DNA of 48,766 nt, taken from positions 1 through 48,766 of the forward strand of contig JABLTJ010000025.1 in assembly GCA_013166775.1 (NCBI GenBank), given 5' to 3'. Below, piece after piece: positions 42,583 to 48,766 of this stretch. The position numbers were made by a program, and so were the translations under genes. Each line of letters starts with the position of its first letter. Position 1 is the first letter of the stretch. Source of the DNA: Promethearchaeati archaeon. Lineage in GTDB: Archaea; Asgardarchaeota; Heimdallarchaeia; Heimdallarchaeales; Heimdallarchaeaceae. Below the pieces are notes generated by a model that saw only the letters and a list, made by a program, of their open reading frames with translations, was not told the DNA's origin and did no database searches.

Positions 42583-43032
42583 ATGGATTTTATTGAAGAT
42601 TCTATAGAGATAAAAGCAACACCAGAGAGGATTTACAGTTTTTTTGAAAATTGGACAAAAAACTATAAAATCTGGCATCCAGACCATGGAGAAGCAAAAT
42701 GGATTAAAGGGAATCTATCAGAAGTAGACTCAATACTTTACATAGAAGAATATCTTCACGGGGAACTGCATAAAATGAAATTTAGACTAACATACGTAGA
42801 CCCCCCTAATAAATTCGATTACAAAATTCTTTTTCCTATGTCATTAATAATTCCTAAGGGTTCATTTATTATAGATAAAAAAGATGATACTAAAAGTACT
42901 TTTAGAGCAATTATGTATTTCAGGTTAGGAAAGATTCTGAAGAAAGTTACTAGAAAAAAATATGAAGAGCTCAGAAAGCATATGAAAGAGGAAGGAGTTA
43001 ATCTTAAGAAAATATTGGAAGAAACAAGCTAA
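42583..43032 (+). CDS. SRPBCC/START-like family protein
   Basis: SIEIKATPERIY, YKIWHPDH, HMKEEG.NLK..LE. Confidence 0.85.
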   Translation: MDFIEDSIEIKATPERIYSFFENWTKNYKIWHPDHGEAKWIKGNLSEVDSILYIEEYLHGELHKMKFRLTYVDPPNKFDYKILFPMSLIIPKGSFIIDKKDDTKSTFRAIMYFRLGKILKKVTRKKYEELRKHMKEEGVNLKKILEETS

Positions 43033-43150: not shown

Positions 43151-43648
43151 TCATGTCTTCTTTCTATCTTTTGGTGCATAAAATCTCATTTGGTTTTCTA
43201 TACTTTTTAGGTTTGAGAATGAAATAAACACGATAACACACATTCCTAATAATCCATTAATTGCTGCTAATAAAGGATAAAACCAAACTAGTATGAATGT
43301 GGAAATTATCATCGAGATTATAAAACTAAGTTGAAAAGCACTCCTTGGGATTAAGAATCCTCTGATAAAATGTGTTGTGATTCGGATTGGAATTTGGAAT
43401 CTATAGAGTTGTTTACCTTCTTGTGACAATCTATAGAGAGTAGAGGGGAGTTTTTCTATGAGCCCAGCTTCCTCGAGTTTGTCTAGATGCCATACAGCAG
43501 TACTTGGACTCTTAAGGGAAACTGCTCGTTGAGTTTCCCTAACTCCAATATCTTCTTTAGTTTTGGAGCGTAGGTAGATGAAGAGTTTGAGAGTAGTTGG
43601 GTGTTCAAGGACTCTACTAATCTTGTCTTCTTGTTCTAGAACCATCAA
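43151..43648 (-). CDS. Membrane-tethered wHTH transcription regulator (copy A)
   Basis: VLEHPTTL, IGVRETQRA..KSPS...WHL.KL..AG; two C-terminal TM helices; GGTGA SD. Confidence 0.85.
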   Translation of the reverse strand: MMVLEQEDKISRVLEHPTTLKLFIYLRSKTKEDIGVRETQRAVSLKSPSTAVWHLDKLEEAGLIEKLPSTLYRLSQEGKQLYRFQIPIRITTHFIRGFLIPRSAFQLSFIISMIISTFILVWFYPLLAAINGLLGMCVIVFISFSNLKSIENQMRFYAPKDRKKT

Positions 43649-43660
43649 AATTCACCGAGT

Positions 43661-44413
43661 TTATTGAGATTCGAAGAAATTCTCCAGTAGCTGATTTATA
43701 GCTACAGTGTAATTAGGAAATTGTTCTTCCATATAGCCTAAGTACCATATTTTGTGGAAATTATCATCAACTTTTCCAAACCAATGAGTGTAACCTGAAT
43801 CATATTCAGTAAATCTGTTTAGTTGAATAAAAACCACGTCATCAAAGGATAACAGTCGAATTATTGACCCATCCTGATAGAAATACACAATATCGTATTC
43901 AGTCATATTTTCCTTAACTAAGTTTTGTCTAAGTTCTTGGTAATTTTCAGTAATGTCAGTTAAATTGTCTATAGTTTGAATATCAGAAGATAGAGCAGAA
44001 GGTAGATTAACTAGAATATCGGGATTAATAACATAATAAGTATCATATAGATTGCTACTCCCAACAGCATCATAAACCAGTAACCAATTCTCAGCTTCTA
44101 AATTAAACCAAACATGTACCGTATTCACAGAATAATTGAAGTAAGGGATATCAAAAATACAACCACCATCTTCCAAAGCTCTGCCAACATTAACAGCCAT
44201 AGCATAGAGAAAATCTGAACGACTTAACATCTGATTGGAGAGTTTAACAGGAGAATCAATGTCCCAATCGAAAGAAGGGAGAAGGCCTGTTGCTCCCATA
44301 TTCATAGTAGTGGTTACGAATGAAACACCTAGAATAATTGTAGTTAAACATAGAGCCGTCAGAAAACCAAAAAGAAGATTCTTCTTAACTTGACTTAAAT
44401 GCATAAGTATCAA
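43661..44413 (-). CDS. Single-pass membrane-anchored extracellular protein (copy A)
   Basis: N-terminal KK plus TM; paralog of 47893..48651; 12-bp gap to the wHTH gene. Confidence 0.75.
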   Translation of the reverse strand: MILMHLSQVKKNLLFGFLTALCLTTIILGVSFVTTTMNMGATGLLPSFDWDIDSPVKLSNQMLSRSDFLYAMAVNVGRALEDGGCIFDIPYFNYSVNTVHVWFNLEAENWLLVYDAVGSSNLYDTYYVINPDILVNLPSALSSDIQTIDNLTDITENYQELRQNLVKENMTEYDIVYFYQDGSIIRLLSFDDVVFIQLNRFTEYDSGYTHWFGKVDDNFHKIWYLGYMEEQFPNYTVAINQLLENFFESQ

Positions 44414-44462
44414 AAATAGAATAAGATTTTAGATTAATAAATGTAGTGAGAGAGCATTTTTG

Positions 44463-44504
44463 TTCTAGTGCTAGAACGTCCGTGGCCTAGCGAATCTATA
44501 AAAA
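44463..44504 (+). repeat. 42-bp promoter repeat copy 1 (palindrome plus BRE/TATA)
   Basis: 36/42 identical to 45025..45066; GTTCTAG-TG-CTAGAAC at 44462-44477. Confidence 0.85.
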
Positions 44505-44546
44505 CAAGAATACAAATATTGTACGATAAGGTGTTGAGAATCTGAT

Positions 44547-44906
44547 ATGACAAAGGAAAAAGAGGATAGAAAAATCGGTTTTTACAGTCGTTATCATGCA
44601 AAAATCTTTATTTTCTTAGGGATCTCTGTTATAGTCTTAATTCTTATTTCAATTACATTTATCGTAAGAACAATTTTTACTGGTCCAGTAAAAGTACCAA
44701 CATTGAGATTCAACATTGCTGGAGGATTTCTTGCATTTTTATCTCTTCTTCATGCAATTTTCACAGTCGTTATCTACAGAAGTCGAGATAAAGAAGCTCC
44801 TTATCGGATACTATTGATACTGACTCTGATATTTGATATATTATTAATAATAGGTGGTATAGCAGCAACTACAGTATATATAGGAATATACCCCTCCCTG
44901 AGTTAG
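44547..44906 (+). CDS. Small 3-TM membrane protein
   Basis: Three hydrophobic helices; AGGTG SD-like sequence. Confidence 0.75.
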   Translation: MTKEKEDRKIGFYSRYHAKIFIFLGISVIVLILISITFIVRTIFTGPVKVPTLRFNIAGGFLAFLSLLHAIFTVVIYRSRDKEAPYRILLILTLIFDILLIIGGIAATTVYIGIYPSLS

Positions 44907-45024
44907 AAGAATTGATAAATTCCTAACAATAGTTCAAGTTTGGAAGATTTTTTGAGAGAACTCAAAGACCAAAGAAAAAATAGTCTAAATATTGATGATT
45001 TTCAATCCTTCTTGAATTCGTTTT

Positions 45025-45066
45025 TTCTAGTACTAGAACGTCCGTAGCTGTGCAAATCTATAAAAA
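45025..45066 (+). repeat. 42-bp promoter repeat copy 2
   Basis: Perfect palindrome TTCTAGTACTAGAA (45025-45038), then CTATAAAAA TATA box. Confidence 0.85.
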
Positions 45067-45481
45067 TGGAGAAACTAGTATTCACTGTATGAAAAGATTA
45101 CATGTGATGAAATTCCATGAGAAGAAATCAAGCAACATTGAAGGAAGATTTGAAAAAGAACAAATCCAAAATTTTTTCAGAAGTAAGAAAACCTATACAA
45201 CTTTGTTTGTATTTGGTCAATTTTGGGTTGCTGTAATTTCAATTCTAAGTAATCAATTGGTTCGTATTAATTTCGATTTGCCTTTTTGTGGAGCGATTCT
45301 ACCACTTGTTAGAGCAATTTATGTGATCTTCTTCATAACACAAGGATTCAACTTTGTCTATATATTTTATCTACGTTTTAAAAATGAGATCAACACTTTG
45401 ACTGCCACTCTAACTCCTACATCAAATTTTATCATTTCAGGATTGATTTTCTCTTTTAGCTTCATCATCCCTATGTGCTGA
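45050..45481 (+). CDS. Small 3-TM membrane protein (true start likely downstream, ATG ~45089-45107)
   Basis: Three hydrophobic segments; the annotated GTG lies upstream of the TATA box. Confidence 0.6.
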   Translation: MQIYKNGETSIHCMKRLHVMKFHEKKSSNIEGRFEKEQIQNFFRSKKTYTTLFVFGQFWVAVISILSNQLVRINFDLPFCGAILPLVRAIYVIFFITQGFNFVYIFYLRFKNEINTLTATLTPTSNFIISGLIFSFSFIIPMC

Positions 45482-45673
45482 TAAAAAACAGTTACGCAAA
45501 TCGATAAACTTCCCAACGTATTTCTCCCTATGTTTTCCCACATTGATCCATCTGTAGATATATTGAATAGGACGAAAAATGTAAACAAACCAAGATATGA
45601 AGTTAAAGATTTTAACTGTTGTTGAAAAAGTGATTATTTCTGCTATTTTTGAATTTTTCTCTTCATAGATTCA

Positions 45674-46339
45674 TTAATTGGTTATTGTTTTTCTCCTTTT
45701 GTATACATTAATCAGGAATGATAATAAGAAAATGAAAACGAGTGGGGATGTGAGTAAGAAGTTTGTATCATCAGTAGTTTGATCAGGAGTTTGAGTGTCA
45801 GAGCTTACCTCTTCAGTACGATTATAGTAAAAACTGTGATAAATTATTTTTATAATCCCAGAATTTACAATAATAATGGTTGGAAATTGCTCTCCTGAGA
45901 TAGGTCGACAGAGAGTATAGTTGCCATCTGGAAGCTGAGATAAACCTTTTTGATTAATATAAAATTGCACAACTTCATATTCAACAGTGATGCCAGGCGG
46001 ATAGGAATAGATCTTAGACATATCAAGGCACCATATCCATTGTTCAAGTTCTAATAATTGATCTACAAATACTGCACTAATCAAAACTTTAGGATAACAA
46101 TCTACTCCTACAGATACTGTTTGATTTTCCTCAGCCCTATTTAAGATCTCTACTTTGGTTTTGATTCCAAATAAAGTAGAACTAGATTGATAATTTAGAT
46201 CAATTATTGCAATTTCACTGATCTCAGAGATTCTAGAAGCAATAACGGGTTGATTGCCAGTAACTGCTAACACATTAGAAAGAATAAGTAATTGTATTAT
46301 TACTATTAGAATCAAGAATTTTTCCAGTAATTTAAACAT
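45674..46339 (-). CDS. Putative cell-surface protein, paralog of 125..799
   Basis: Signal peptide, S/T/D-rich linker, C-terminal TM plus KRRK. Confidence 0.75.
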   Translation of the reverse strand: MFKLLEKFLILIVIIQLLILSNVLAVTGNQPVIASRISEISEIAIIDLNYQSSSTLFGIKTKVEILNRAEENQTVSVGVDCYPKVLISAVFVDQLLELEQWIWCLDMSKIYSYPPGITVEYEVVQFYINQKGLSQLPDGNYTLCRPISGEQFPTIIIVNSGIIKIIYHSFYYNRTEEVSSDTQTPDQTTDDTNFLLTSPLVFIFLLSFLINVYKRRKTITN

Positions 46340-47315
46340 GAACTTTTCTCTTCCTTTTTGTTTTTTTAGCCACTAAAATTATTATTAAGACTATTAAAGG
46401 CACATGATAATTAAATTCAGGTTTAACAATCTTTTCTGCAATTTTGATTTTCTCTGGTTCAAAAAGATAGGATTCATTAGTGGATTCATTTACAAAATAT
46501 TCCTTAATCATTAATCCAGTTTTCCGCTCATAATATCTTGTTCTAGAAGAAAAAACATGTGTTTCACCTAAATTCTCAATTTTTATACTAGGATATTTTA
46601 CCTCTATAACATCATATTGAGTTGGAGTATCATTGATTGATGTAAAATCAGTGACAATCCCCTTACAAAATCCAGTGTCTATCTCATGTCCTATATCGAC
46701 TTCTGGAGATATAATGTAGGGAACAATTGGTGGAGAGTAGAAAGTCCAGCTCTTATTCAGAAAGAGATTGGTTTCATATCCACCACCTCTCAGATACCAA
46801 ACAGCGTTTGGTAAATAGTCTCTCAAATAAGTTTGTGATCCATTCTTAAACGTGATAACGGCATTGAGTTTATCTGACATGTCCTCAAATTTATTATAGT
46901 CAAGAAGTGATATTGAGATATTATATCTATCACAGGGAAAACCACTATGTTCAGCTATTAATTGAGCAGTATGTAAAGCATAAGTTCCATTTTGCTTCCA
47001 AATTAAACGAGACCAATGATAAAAAGTAGGACAGAGAAAGACATTTTTGTTCGTATATATATTCAGATATGTTTCTTTGAATTGAATAACCTCTTCTCTA
47101 ATATCTTTAAAACGCCAAATATCTTCAATTTCATAAGAAAAATCGGAGTAACTGGAATTTATTTCTATCAAGGGATTAGCATAAAAAATATGTCCTTCAA
47201 CGAAACTACCCTTAGTTACGGATAAAACAGGATTGGAAGAACACGAAGAATTAGGAATTAGTGCTAAGAATAAAGAAAATATGAGAAATAGCACATAAAA
47301 CTTTTTACTTTCCAT
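46332..47315 (-). CDS. Putative cell-surface protein with C-terminal anchor
   Basis: Signal peptide, many N-x-S/T sequons, YERKTGLMI, C-terminal PEF..TM..KKTKRKRK. Confidence 0.75.
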   Translation of the reverse strand: MESKKFYVLFLIFSLFLALIPNSSCSSNPVLSVTKGSFVEGHIFYANPLIEINSSYSDFSYEIEDIWRFKDIREEVIQFKETYLNIYTNKNVFLCPTFYHWSRLIWKQNGTYALHTAQLIAEHSGFPCDRYNISISLLDYNKFEDMSDKLNAVITFKNGSQTYLRDYLPNAVWYLRGGGYETNLFLNKSWTFYSPPIVPYIISPEVDIGHEIDTGFCKGIVTDFTSINDTPTQYDVIEVKYPSIKIENLGETHVFSSRTRYYERKTGLMIKEYFVNESTNESYLFEPEKIKIAEKIVKPEFNYHVPLIVLIIILVAKKTKRKRKVHV

Positions 47316-47388
47316 AAGACCGCTAAACTAAAGTATAAAACACTTATATAAGTTCAGATTTGGAAGAAATGGAAACAGAAGTCAATTT

Positions 47389-47883
47389 TTATTCTTCTAG
47401 AATCATGTCATATGATTGTAATTCCTTTCTCATCTTAATTAATTGAATAATTACAAATACAAGTATCGCAATCAATGAGAATATTCCATTTATTGCCCCT
47501 ATAAGTGGTTTCCACAAAGAAAAAGCAATTGTTAATACTACGCTTATAAATAAAAATGTTGCAAGAAAAGTAATTTTAGGAACAAAGATACCTTTCACCA
47601 ATAGAACAGATATTTTTACTGGAATTCGTATCTGTTGAGTTAAACCAATATCTGTTAGTTGAAACCTATTTGAAGATAATTTCTCGACAAATCCAGCGTT
47701 TTCTAGTTTTTCTAAATGCCATTTAACAATGCTCGGACTTTTGATATTCAAAGCTCGTTGAGTTTCTCTTACACCTATGGTTTCAGAGGATCTGTCATCG
47801 GAATATCGTAAGTAAAGATAAATCCGTAATGTGGTTGGATGCTCAAGCACAGAAGAAATATTCTCCAAATCATCAGTATTCAT
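47389..47883 (-). CDS. Membrane-tethered wHTH transcription regulator (copy B)
   Basis: VLEHPTTL, IGVRETQRAL.IKSPS..WHLEKL; two TMs with AINGI. Confidence 0.85.
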   Translation of the reverse strand: MNTDDLENISSVLEHPTTLRIYLYLRYSDDRSSETIGVRETQRALNIKSPSIVKWHLEKLENAGFVEKLSSNRFQLTDIGLTQQIRIPVKISVLLVKGIFVPKITFLATFLFISVVLTIAFSLWKPLIGAINGIFSLIAILVFVIIQLIKMRKELQSYDMILEE

Positions 47884-47892
47884 AAAATTAAC

Positions 47893-48651
47893 CTAAGGTG
47901 AATTTTGTTTTATTAAATCATTTATAGCATTTGTATGTTGTGGAAAAAAACCAGTGAGATTACCTCTGTAGGTAATTTCAGGAATGCTAGTATCTATATA
48001 CCAACCAGAAGATCCATCAATTGATACATAATAGTCCCTGAAAAGGATAGAATCAAGAATTATTTGCCCATTCTGCAAAAATAGCTGTAAATATGTTCCA
48101 TCATAGAACACGAACTCTATCCTATAAACTAGAAAACCAACCTCTAATTTATCATCAATTCCAGTATGAAAATATTCCCCTGTTACATCTAGCAAATTCT
48201 GAGTTTGAGCTAAATCTTGAGATAAAGCTGAAATAATAATCTGGATTGTGTTTTTATTAATTGTAAAATCAGGTTTTAATCTTGGTTCTGGAACAATGGA
48301 ATCAAGATGAAAATTCCACACATCCTTTCTTTGATTATGCCATAATGAATAAGACTTTCTATTTCCATAGAAAAATGGAAATGGTGTATTCGTCTTAAGA
48401 GAGTACCCAACAGAGGGAGTAATATTAAAAACTCTTACAATGGAAAAAAGAATTTTATCACTTCTCTCTTCTAGTTGTGATGAAAATAAAGTAATATTGT
48501 CGAAATTCCAAACATATGCAGAAGTTTCAAATTCGTATTTCTTATCAACAATGTAATTTCGTAGATAGACTATACTTACAGAAGATCCTCCAATTAATAT
48601 TGCTAATAGAAGTCCATAAATCATCCATTTTCTTGAAAAGGATTTCTTCAT
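47893..48651 (-). CDS. Single-pass membrane-anchored extracellular protein (copy B)
   Basis: N-terminal KK..RK plus TM; shares RSD, SALS.D, NL.D.T..Y, DG and FP..T.AIN.L with 43661..44413; 9-bp gap to the wHTH gene. Confidence 0.75.
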   Translation of the reverse strand: MKKSFSRKWMIYGLLLAILIGGSSVSIVYLRNYIVDKKYEFETSAYVWNFDNITLFSSQLEERSDKILFSIVRVFNITPSVGYSLKTNTPFPFFYGNRKSYSLWHNQRKDVWNFHLDSIVPEPRLKPDFTINKNTIQIIISALSQDLAQTQNLLDVTGEYFHTGIDDKLEVGFLVYRIEFVFYDGTYLQLFLQNGQIILDSILFRDYYVSIDGSSGWYIDTSIPEITYRGNLTGFFPQHTNAINDLIKQNSP

Positions 48652-48766
48652 TTTCTTTCAACATATCTATTTGAATGAGATTATTTAAAGCTAGTACACG
48701 AACATATAGAATACTGTTAGAAGCAAAATCGAACATGAAAGATAGATTATGAAAGATGTTATGGAT

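Follow-up and report, generated by a model that had tools for sequence, protein, structure and literature searches.

In the bacterial co-component systems VtrA/VtrC, ToxR/ToxS and TcpP/TcpH (Kinch et al. 2022, PMC9214523), a membrane-tethered winged-helix factor is accompanied by an extracytoplasmic partner that is anchored by its N-terminus and encoded by a gene of its own. This gene is adjacent to that of the factor or overlaps it, and the cassettes are fast-evolving and paralogous. The winged helix of ToxR, TcpP and VtrA is OmpR/PhoB-like, and the ToxR-type regulator crosses the membrane once and carries a periplasmic domain. Among archaea, ArnR and ArnR1 of Sulfolobus acidocaldarius are one-component regulators in which an N-terminal HTH is combined with two transmembrane (TM) helices at the C-terminus, and they control surface-structure genes (PMC6396743). 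A survey of transmembrane transcription regulators (TTRs), in which a DNA-binding domain and a TM region are present in one protein, found that most examined archaeal genomes carry them, about 4 per genome (Demey et al. 2023, PMC10269533). Asgard archaea are not mentioned in the text of this survey, and a term search of it found no ArsR or HTH_20 type.

Asgard archaea are the closest prokaryotic relatives of eukaryotes, and their signal transduction is almost unexplored experimentally. The window (the whole stretch of 48,766 nucleotides that was analysed here, from a Heimdallarchaeaceae genome) carries a two-gene unit that is likely to connect the cell surface with gene control in a direct way.

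Two partner-regulator cassettes and their relatives

Two cassettes are located on the minus strand of the window, A (44413->43151) and B (48651->47389). In both of them the partner gene, of a family referred to here as P250, is first and the regulator gene is second.

43661..44413, minus strand: partner A (P250 family), 250 aa, with an N-terminal TM helix; E 2e-87 to the partner profile
43151..43648, minus strand: regulator A, 165 aa, winged helix and TM hairpin; assigned by homology to regulator B
47893..48651, minus strand: partner B (P250 family), 252 aa, signal-anchor helix and outside-facing α/β domain; from the open reading frame and the AlphaFold2 (AF2) model
47389..47883, minus strand: regulator B, 164 aa, ArsR/HTH_20-like winged helix and C-terminal two-helix TM hairpin; from Pfam, AF2 and Foldseek

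The original prediction, made from the letters of this DNA, had described one operon present twice with gaps of 9-12 bp. All four open reading frames are found at these coordinates, and the gaps are 12 bp in cassette A (43649-43660) and 9 bp in cassette B (47884-47892). The motifs that it had listed for the two proteins are visible in both pairwise alignments, that of the regulators (37% identity over 159 aa, E 9e-39) and that of the partners (21% identity over 253 aa, E 4e-12). It had also held the regulators to be better conserved than the partners, which agrees with these two values and with a set of 32 pairs, where conservation is higher for the regulator in 96% of comparisons. Its term 'duplicated module' is correct in that two copies exist, but a recent local duplication is excluded by orthologues elsewhere and by a third paralogue. 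Copies A and B each have their own orthologue in other species (94% identical for regulator A, locus L014), and the third paralogue, cassette C, is found on contig C15 of the same genome. A recent tandem duplication of the cassettes is also ruled out by the tree. Judged from the sequences, A, B and C are ancient paralogues.

The order of the two genes is the same in all 32 P250-regulator pairs, and the distance between them ranges from -26 to 50 bp. Across these pairs the two genes co-diverge, with a Mantel r of 0.95 that was matched in 0 of 2000 permutations. By these sequence comparisons, the cassette is inherited as a tightly linked unit, which is the outcome of the adjacency check that the original prediction had proposed. 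It had named a general lack of linkage between homologues as an outcome that would speak against it. The P250 pairs are tightly linked; in Asgard lineages at a greater distance, most related regulators have no such neighbour and stand alone. The partner is thus not obligatory for the regulator family, which is present in 219 of 399 Asgard genomes, with about 570 hits in all. That the hairpin regulators of distant lineages mostly lack a partner neighbour, and so can work without one, counts against the signalling model that is favoured below.

Five good genomes of the family encode 15 regulators, and for 13 of these the preceding gene has the same direction and codes for a protein that is exported or anchored by its N-terminus; the genome background for this arrangement is 9.4%. 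The class of the partner clusters on the regulator tree (12 changes vs 32 in shuffles). Sister regulators also sit after other anchored surface proteins, namely DUF3160 and a metallophosphoesterase. A complete P250 unit is fused to the C-terminus of NosD β-helix proteins (E 2e-51), and it keeps its own TM helix though the NosD protein already has an anchor. For L034 and L044, two orphan N-anchored upstream proteins, alignment with P250 gave no significant profile match. The upstream proteins include enzyme-like and adhesin-like types that are possibly regulated cargo rather than sensors, another observation that counts against this signalling model.

Structures of the regulator and the partner

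In the AF2 model of regulator B, a winged helix (residues 16-76) is followed by a linker of about 15 residues (roughly 77-92) and by the two helices of a TM hairpin (residues 93-124 and 126-155). The hairpin helices are connected by a turn of a few residues, with no outside domain and nearly nothing exposed. Residues 81-100 are modelled at low confidence (pLDDT 63-66). Two TM segments and almost no external loop had been expected from the sequence; the hairpin is seen both by hydropathy and in the model, and the short turn fits as well.

The HTH_20 score of regulator B is 28.2 bits, above the Pfam gathering cutoff of 27. That of regulator A, 21.3 bits, is under this cutoff, yet the two proteins share the 37% identity given above. 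The Pfam scan (E<=1) of the regulator finds HTH_20, LexA_DNA_bind, HTH_5 and MarR, and at this threshold Trans_reg_C, the OmpR/PhoB-type winged helix, is missing. A search with Foldseek places regulator B with the DNA-binding domains of ArsR/SmtB/CzrA, DtxR and LexA (prob 1.00, rmsd 2.2-2.9 Å). For the CzrA, SmtB, ArsR and YodB chains, the TM score by target is 0.50-0.68 and the rmsd is 2.4-3.1 Å over 80-87 residues (prob 1.00). The similarity in sequence is weak, with ArsR being the sole match of the regulator profile in the PDB (E 0.03). The ArsR/SmtB metalloregulators (PDB entries 6j05, 6cda and 1r22) have the same winged-helix fold and a recognition-helix signature similar to that of the regulator, S-x-S...HL..L. 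Sites for sensing metals or metalloids are placed at α3N or α5 in this family, α5 being a C-terminal helix for dimerisation or metal binding. In comparison, the modelled regulator is without this helix, and the TM hairpin comes after the wing. As modelled, the regulator combines an ArsR/SmtB-like winged helix for DNA binding with a C-terminal two-helix membrane hairpin.

The model of partner B has a pLDDT of 92.2 and a pTM of 0.83, with a single TM helix at residues 7-34 that is also apparent from hydropathy. The partner has a basic N-terminus followed by this helix, and it carries 1.5 N-glycosylation sequons per 100 aa, compared to 0.55 for cytoplasmic open reading frames. P250 is thereby predicted to be a type-II anchored protein with its α/β domain facing the outside, in keeping with the single N-terminal TM segment and the extracellular location proposed originally. 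The family matched 54 representative clusters among 1.84 billion proteins.

Partner B has no match in Pfam or NCBIfam. Fold searches with P250 gave no clear match, and all of the matches are at background level. The best E value with Foldseek against the PDB is 8.7e-4, at a TM score of 0.14 (LolA/RseB-like, Med18/20). The top Z score with VIA-align (48,161 chains) is 6.4, for 2mct, followed by 5.8 and 5.6 (Mago), with YycH at 3.6. In the ESM Atlas, TM scores by shape are at most 0.42 and feature scores are below 0.9. VtrC, ToxS and lipocalin chains are absent among these weak matches (Z 6.4, TM <=0.42) of Foldseek, VIA-align and the Atlas. The original prediction had called for a Foldseek search of the ectodomain and had named a known enzyme as an outcome that would speak against it; no enzyme family was matched in Pfam, NCBIfam or the fold searches.

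Like VtrA/VtrC, ToxR/ToxS and TcpP/TcpH, the cassette pairs a membrane-tethered winged-helix factor with a separately encoded anchored partner, in adjacent or overlapping, fast-evolving and paralogous genes. The original prediction had drawn the comparison with ToxRS and TcpPH, and the adjacent anchored partner is the part of it that holds; the missing Trans_reg_C match and the hairpin in place of a single-pass helix depart from it. Since the regulator has no outside domain, any contact with the partner must be within or beside the membrane. Moreover, the partner gene is first, the host is an archaeon, and P250 has no lipocalin or VtrC match, its best fold matches being weak. An ArsR/SmtB-type winged helix with a hairpin, rather than an OmpR-type single-pass protein, makes the Asgard cassette an analogue of the bacterial co-component systems (ToxRS, VtrAC) and not a homologue, and it is outside that family. 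The regulator fits the definition of a TTR, and it resembles ArnR/ArnR1 in having its HTH at the N-terminus and two TM helices at the C-terminus. However, the HTH of ArnR is separated from the TM helices by a HAMP-like and a sensing domain, where the Asgard regulator has only the short linker, and the Asgard regulator, unlike ArnR, has the gene of an outside-facing partner attached.

Promoter palindromes and genes between the cassettes

The promoter elements of the cassettes and the four genes located between them are as follows.

48682..48703, minus strand: promoter of cassette B, box GTTCGTGTACTAGC abutting TATA box TTTAAATA; conserved upstream of orthologous cassettes
44462..44477, strand not assigned: perfect palindrome GTTCTAG-N2-CTAGAAC in the divergent promoter of cassette A and the 119-aa gene
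44547..44906, plus strand: 119-aa protein with 3 TM helices, candidate target gene behind copy 1 of a 46-nt repeat
45021..45066, plus strand: 46-nt promoter repeat, copy 2, with palindrome and TATA box, before the 130/143-aa gene
45089..45481, plus strand: 130-aa membrane protein with 2 TM helices, candidate target gene behind copy 2 of the repeat
45674..46339, minus strand: 221-aa surface protein with signal peptide, acidic Thr-rich stalk and C-terminal TM helix; from the open reading frame and TM segments
46332..47315, minus strand: 327-aa surface protein with signal peptide, 9 sequons and C-terminal TM anchor; from the open reading frame and TM segments

The box of cassette B and its TATA box are conserved before the orthologous cassettes of two other species, where the flanks differ, and similar boxes precede related cassettes. 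The exact core of the cassette A palindrome is found at 3 places in the 3.85-Mb genome, two of them at this locus. The two copies of the 46-nt repeat (direct repeat family D1), 45021-45066 and 44459-44504, are 85% identical. Cassettes of the A/B type have GTTC...GAAC palindromes, and in one species pair a compensatory change keeps the palindrome (GTTCAG-N3-CTGAAC vs GTCCAG-N3-CTGGAC). In 13 species, cassettes of the C type keep a pair of TGTACA palindromes, spaced 21 nt, that directly adjoins the TATA box. Rows L019 and L020 of the promoter alignment had wrong coordinates and were disregarded.

The classes of recognition helix track the classes of palindrome, and the helix sequence is invariant within a regulator subtype. 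The presence of a conserved, subtype-specific palindrome beside the TATA box suggests that the regulators autoregulate their own cassettes via these candidate operators. As the paralogues A, B and C differ both in their recognition helices and in their promoter palindromes, the three units are probably three insulated channels.

All four genes between the cassettes encode membrane or surface proteins (119, 130, 221 and 327 aa), as had been noted originally. They had been put forward as a plausible regulon, and the promoter repeat and the cassette A palindrome are indeed shared by the two small membrane-protein genes (119 and 130 aa). The 130-aa protein would be 143 aa long with the GTG at 45050 as its start codon. 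The 327-aa gene follows regulator B on the minus strand after 73 nt and is overlapped by the 221-aa gene by 8 nt. A homologue of the 221-aa protein (31% identity, E 1e-6) is located beside the cassette B orthologue in another species and is inverted there; the orientation of this gene is not conserved. A 140-aa membrane protein beside the cassette A orthologue was considered as a relative of the small membrane proteins in the window, and has no similarity to them. Paired TGTACA sites show no enrichment genome-wide (3 places vs 2 in the control). Both this and the variable orientation of the 221-aa gene count against the signalling model favoured below.

Models for the function of the cassette

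On balance, we lean towards the cassette encoding a split transmembrane signalling unit that works without a kinase. A dimer of the regulator would bind the palindrome at its own promoter, beside the TATA box, and the cassette A regulator may also bind the same palindrome before the two neighbouring small membrane-protein genes. P250 would contact the hairpin of the regulator inside the membrane, and an event at the cell surface would, through P250, change the activity, oligomeric state or stability of the regulator. A predicted complex of partner B and the hairpin portion of regulator B, modelled without controls, has a score of 0.00 and weighs neither way. If the partner does gate the regulator across the membrane, systems with a split sensor and regulator would have arisen independently of ToxRS/VtrAC, from different parts, and P250 would add a new extracellular fold family. 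The cassette is a compact and directly testable circuit, in which a single small regulator and a single partner go with a defined palindrome; cognate and non-cognate paralogues are naturally available within one genome.

A broader proposal, which we make tentatively, is that Asgard archaea possess a modular, kinase-free mode of outside-to-gene signalling. A winged-helix/hairpin output would be coupled by intramembrane contacts to exchangeable anchored surface proteins. P250 would be a structurally new, dedicated input or adaptor that can be fused behind larger surface proteins, and each paralogous unit would have its own palindromic operator.

The strongest competing model, which we nevertheless consider rather unlikely, is an autoregulated surface-protein operon without sensing by the partner. 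The hairpin itself would sense the state of the membrane or of secretion, and P250, DUF3160, the metallophosphoesterase and NosD would be cargo. In its favour, the upstream proteins are of several unrelated classes that include enzyme-like ones, many regulators of other Asgard families stand alone, and the conserved putative operators are located at the cassettes' own promoters. On the other hand, the spacing of the two genes is very tight or overlapping, P250 and the regulator co-diverge through ancient paralogy, P250 is without an enzyme signature, and the whole P250 unit, TM helix included, is retained in a fusion to a NosD protein that has an anchor of its own.

It is improbable that membrane attachment keeps the regulator inactive and that an intramembrane protease then releases or degrades it, with P250 protecting or exposing it as TcpH does for TcpP and as in anti-sigma systems. 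The N-terminal DNA-binding domain, the short linker of low confidence before the hairpin and a general layout like that of TcpP/TcpH (PMC11323476) are consistent with such release, but a protease gene is not linked to the cassettes in any examined locus, and ArnR is described as a membrane-bound factor that targets the archaellum gene promoter (PMC6396743).

Least probable, and by our estimate very much so, is a small protein that is not a transcription factor and that uses its winged helix for protein binding, as such helices can also be protein-interaction modules, or for general tethering of DNA to the membrane in a surface-protein assembly complex: the marginal Pfam scores, such as the 21.3 bits of regulator A against a cutoff of 27, would allow it, but the nearest folds are all sequence-specific repressors, and the recognition helix, invariant within a subtype, shifts together with the promoter palindrome.

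Cassettes of the genome and their products

The two-gene operon is present twice in the window, and all four ORFs were found at the positions predicted, on the minus strand:

43661-44413, minus strand: partner A, ORF, 250 aa
43151-43648, minus strand: regulator A, ORF, 165 aa
47893-48651, minus strand: partner B, ORF, 252 aa
47389-47883, minus strand: regulator B, ORF, 164 aa

The genes are separated by 12 bp in cassette A and 9 bp in cassette B, matching the 9-12 bp of the original prediction. Between the two copies, identity is 37% for the regulators (E 9e-39) and 21% for the partners along their whole length (E 4e-12), and the motifs said to be common to both copies are seen in the two alignments. 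A search through the whole assembly finds a third cassette, C, on contig C15 (237-aa partner, 157-aa regulator, 12-bp gap). The copies are real, but the duplication proposed for them is old. In a tree of 69 regulators, A groups with its orthologue of 94% identity and B with its orthologue of 57% identity, and C belongs to another, well-supported clade. This makes the three cassettes ancient paralogues.

Just downstream of cassette A is an SRPBCC/polyketide-cyclase-like protein (42583-43032, plus strand; Pfam Polyketide_cyc2, E 1e-7), whose slot at the orthologous locus of another species is taken by a 140-aa zinc-ribbon membrane protein. Cassette C has, 44 bp downstream, a gene for a surface protein of 557 aa that bears a signal peptide, a C-terminal TM helix and a domain like zinc-dependent phospholipase C (L064:6107-7780, plus strand; L-numbers denote loci fetched from related genomes or metagenome contigs, L064 being from this genome).

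The partner (P250) has no family assignment in Pfam or NCBIfam. Searched exhaustively with a profile, 1.84 billion representative proteins give only 54 matches at E<=1e-3, and almost all of these are full length (245-290 aa). The AlphaFold2 model, from a 49-sequence alignment, is confident (pLDDT 92.2, pTM 0.83); after a TM helix (residues 7-34) comes an alpha/beta domain, in which long antiparallel strands pack on three helices. The fold search suggested earlier for the ectodomain, Foldseek on the PDB, gave background-level matches only, as did VIA-align on 48,161 chains and the ESM Atlas (best figures Z 6.4, TM 0.42), and P250 is thus without an assignable known fold. The N-terminus is basic ahead of the TM helix, and the ectodomains carry 1.50 N-glycosylation sequons per 100 aa, compared to 0.55 in the TM-free ORFs of the window. 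These features fit a domain facing outside, in agreement with the single N-terminal TM and extracellular domain expected of this gene.

The regulator is a winged-helix protein with two TM helices, as predicted. In its AlphaFold2 model (pLDDT 81), the winged helix (residues 16-76) is followed by a short linker of low confidence and two long helices (93-124 and 126-155) with a tight turn between them. Pfam HTH_20 is matched by regulator B with 28.2 bits (cutoff 27) and by regulator A with 21.3 bits; further matches are to LexA_DNA_bind, HTH_5 and MarR, with no OmpR-type domain among the Pfam matches listed. With Foldseek, the N-terminal domain resembles ArsR/SmtB/CzrA, DtxR/IdeR, LexA and MarR repressors (probability 1.00, rmsd 2.2-2.9 Å). 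The family profile has hits in 219 of 399 genomes from the phylum, often several in each; the close relatives are from Heimdallarchaeota/Kariarchaeaceae, judging by source names.

Conserved linkage and co-divergence

The cassettes are a real, conserved feature. Applied to the fetched loci, profiles of both genes find 32 P250-regulator pairs, with gaps of -26 to 50 bp, in the genus, family and order of the window's archaeon and in metagenome contigs. The identity matrices of the two proteins are strongly correlated (Mantel r 0.95, reached in 0 of 2000 permutations), and the regulator is better conserved than its partner in 96% of comparisons, as had been noticed for A and B. Of 15 regulators in five good genomes of the family, 13 have within 82 bp upstream a co-directional gene whose product is exported or anchored by its N-terminus (background 9.4% in this genome). 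The adjacency anticipated for the two genes holds in these groups, but sampled regulators of more distant Asgard families mostly stand alone.

Some arrangements vary. In some genomes of the same taxonomic order, a single regulator gene is preceded by two P250 genes in tandem (L068:5920-8072, plus strand; also the upstream regions of L017 and L018). Regulators with three extra C-terminal TM helices (five in all, 305-306 aa; L036:828-1748, plus strand; L092:1136-2053, minus strand) likewise sit behind a P250 gene. On one Kariarchaeaceae contig, the partner gene is broken into ORFs of 120 and 146 aa (L008:3138-3976, plus strand), possibly through a frameshift or an error of assembly. A distant stand-alone regulator homologue (L011:2596-3033, plus strand) lies within a ribosomal-protein gene cluster that also has a PLD-like gene and a LAGLIDADG-like ORF.

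The genes upstream are of other kinds in further regulator subclades of these genomes. Some regulators of the family directly follow the gene for a DUF3160 protein (733-760 aa, N-terminal TM anchor), one case belonging to a different Asgard family. Another upstream protein, a metallophosphoesterase, has a C-terminal TM helix besides its signal peptide. NosD/beta-helix surface proteins (785-856 aa) end in a complete C-type P250 unit, comprising the juxtamembrane stretch, TM helix and ectodomain (E 2e-51 and 6e-35), and are followed by a regulator gene:

L069:596-2878, minus strand: DUF3160 protein
L070:1454-3655, plus strand: DUF3160 protein
L073:2022-4592, minus strand: NosD/beta-helix with fused P250
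L079:1178-3535, plus strand: NosD/beta-helix with fused P250
L080:1186-3546, plus strand: NosD/beta-helix with fused P250

Promoter palindromes

In C-type cassettes of 13 species, TGTTCAAA is followed by two TGTACA palindromes 21 nt apart, the second adjoining the TTTTATTATAAG TATA box. All of these elements are conserved, while the flanks diverge. A/B-type cassettes have GTTC...GAAC palindromes, and their TATA box is preceded at a distance of a few bases by a GTGTTC(C/T)G box; the cassette-B box GTTCGTGTACTAGC and its TATA box are kept at two orthologous loci. In one species pair, GTTCAG-N3-CTGAAC corresponds to GTCCAG-N3-CTGGAC; the change is compensatory and preserves the palindrome. The classes of recognition-helix sequence track the promoter classes, with TASH(S/A)QYHLQRLE invariant across all C-type regulators.

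A GTTCTAG-N2-CTAGAAC palindrome is located between cassette A and a divergent gene for a 119-aa membrane protein, and recurs before the next membrane-protein gene as part of a direct repeat:

44459-44504 and 45021-45066: 46-nt direct repeat (85% identity) with perfect palindrome, GTCCGT..GC box and TATA box

The exact core occurs in only three places in the 3.85-Mb genome. The palindromes and their classes, a correlative pattern in sequence, are consistent with autoregulation and a small local regulon. The two small membrane proteins encoded behind the repeat copies are unrelated, and the second block of the repeat resembles the cassette-B promoter box. In many species, C-type partner genes have a conserved GAAGT-N6-8-ACTTC inverted repeat immediately ahead of the start codon (L064:4830-4863 on C15; orthologous loci L019-L035, L077, L083 and L090), a possible leader hairpin or element of translational control.

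Proposed mode of action and known systems

The best-supported reading of the cassette is a split, kinase-free transmembrane unit, in which the partner faces outside and the ArsR-like regulator is tethered to the membrane. The partner would have a sensing role and touch the hairpin of the regulator, which would bind the palindromic operators at its own and nearby promoters. This signalling mechanism is proposed with moderate confidence. The main rival explanation treats the upstream proteins as cargo under regulation, with the hairpin regulator sensing alone; the stand-alone relatives of the regulator and the variety of upstream proteins keep it plausible.

The split-unit reading shares its mode of working with the bacterial co-component systems VtrA/VtrC, ToxR/ToxS and TcpP/TcpH (PMC9214523). 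The ToxRS/TcpPH-like character proposed originally stands for the tethered winged helix with a linked outside partner, but not for membership in the ToxR/VtrA family, whose regulators have an OmpR-type winged helix and a single-pass topology with a periplasmic domain; the Asgard regulator has a different type of winged helix and lacks both of the latter. Among the background-level fold matches of P250 there was no VtrC, ToxS or lipocalin chain, which speaks neither for nor against membership. Such partner-regulator pairs in Asgard archaea were not found described in the open-access texts searched. Transmembrane transcription regulators are common in archaea (PMC10269533). ArnR/ArnR1 also combine an HTH with two C-terminal TM helices, but have HAMP-like and sensing domains that are absent from the Asgard regulator (PMC6396743).
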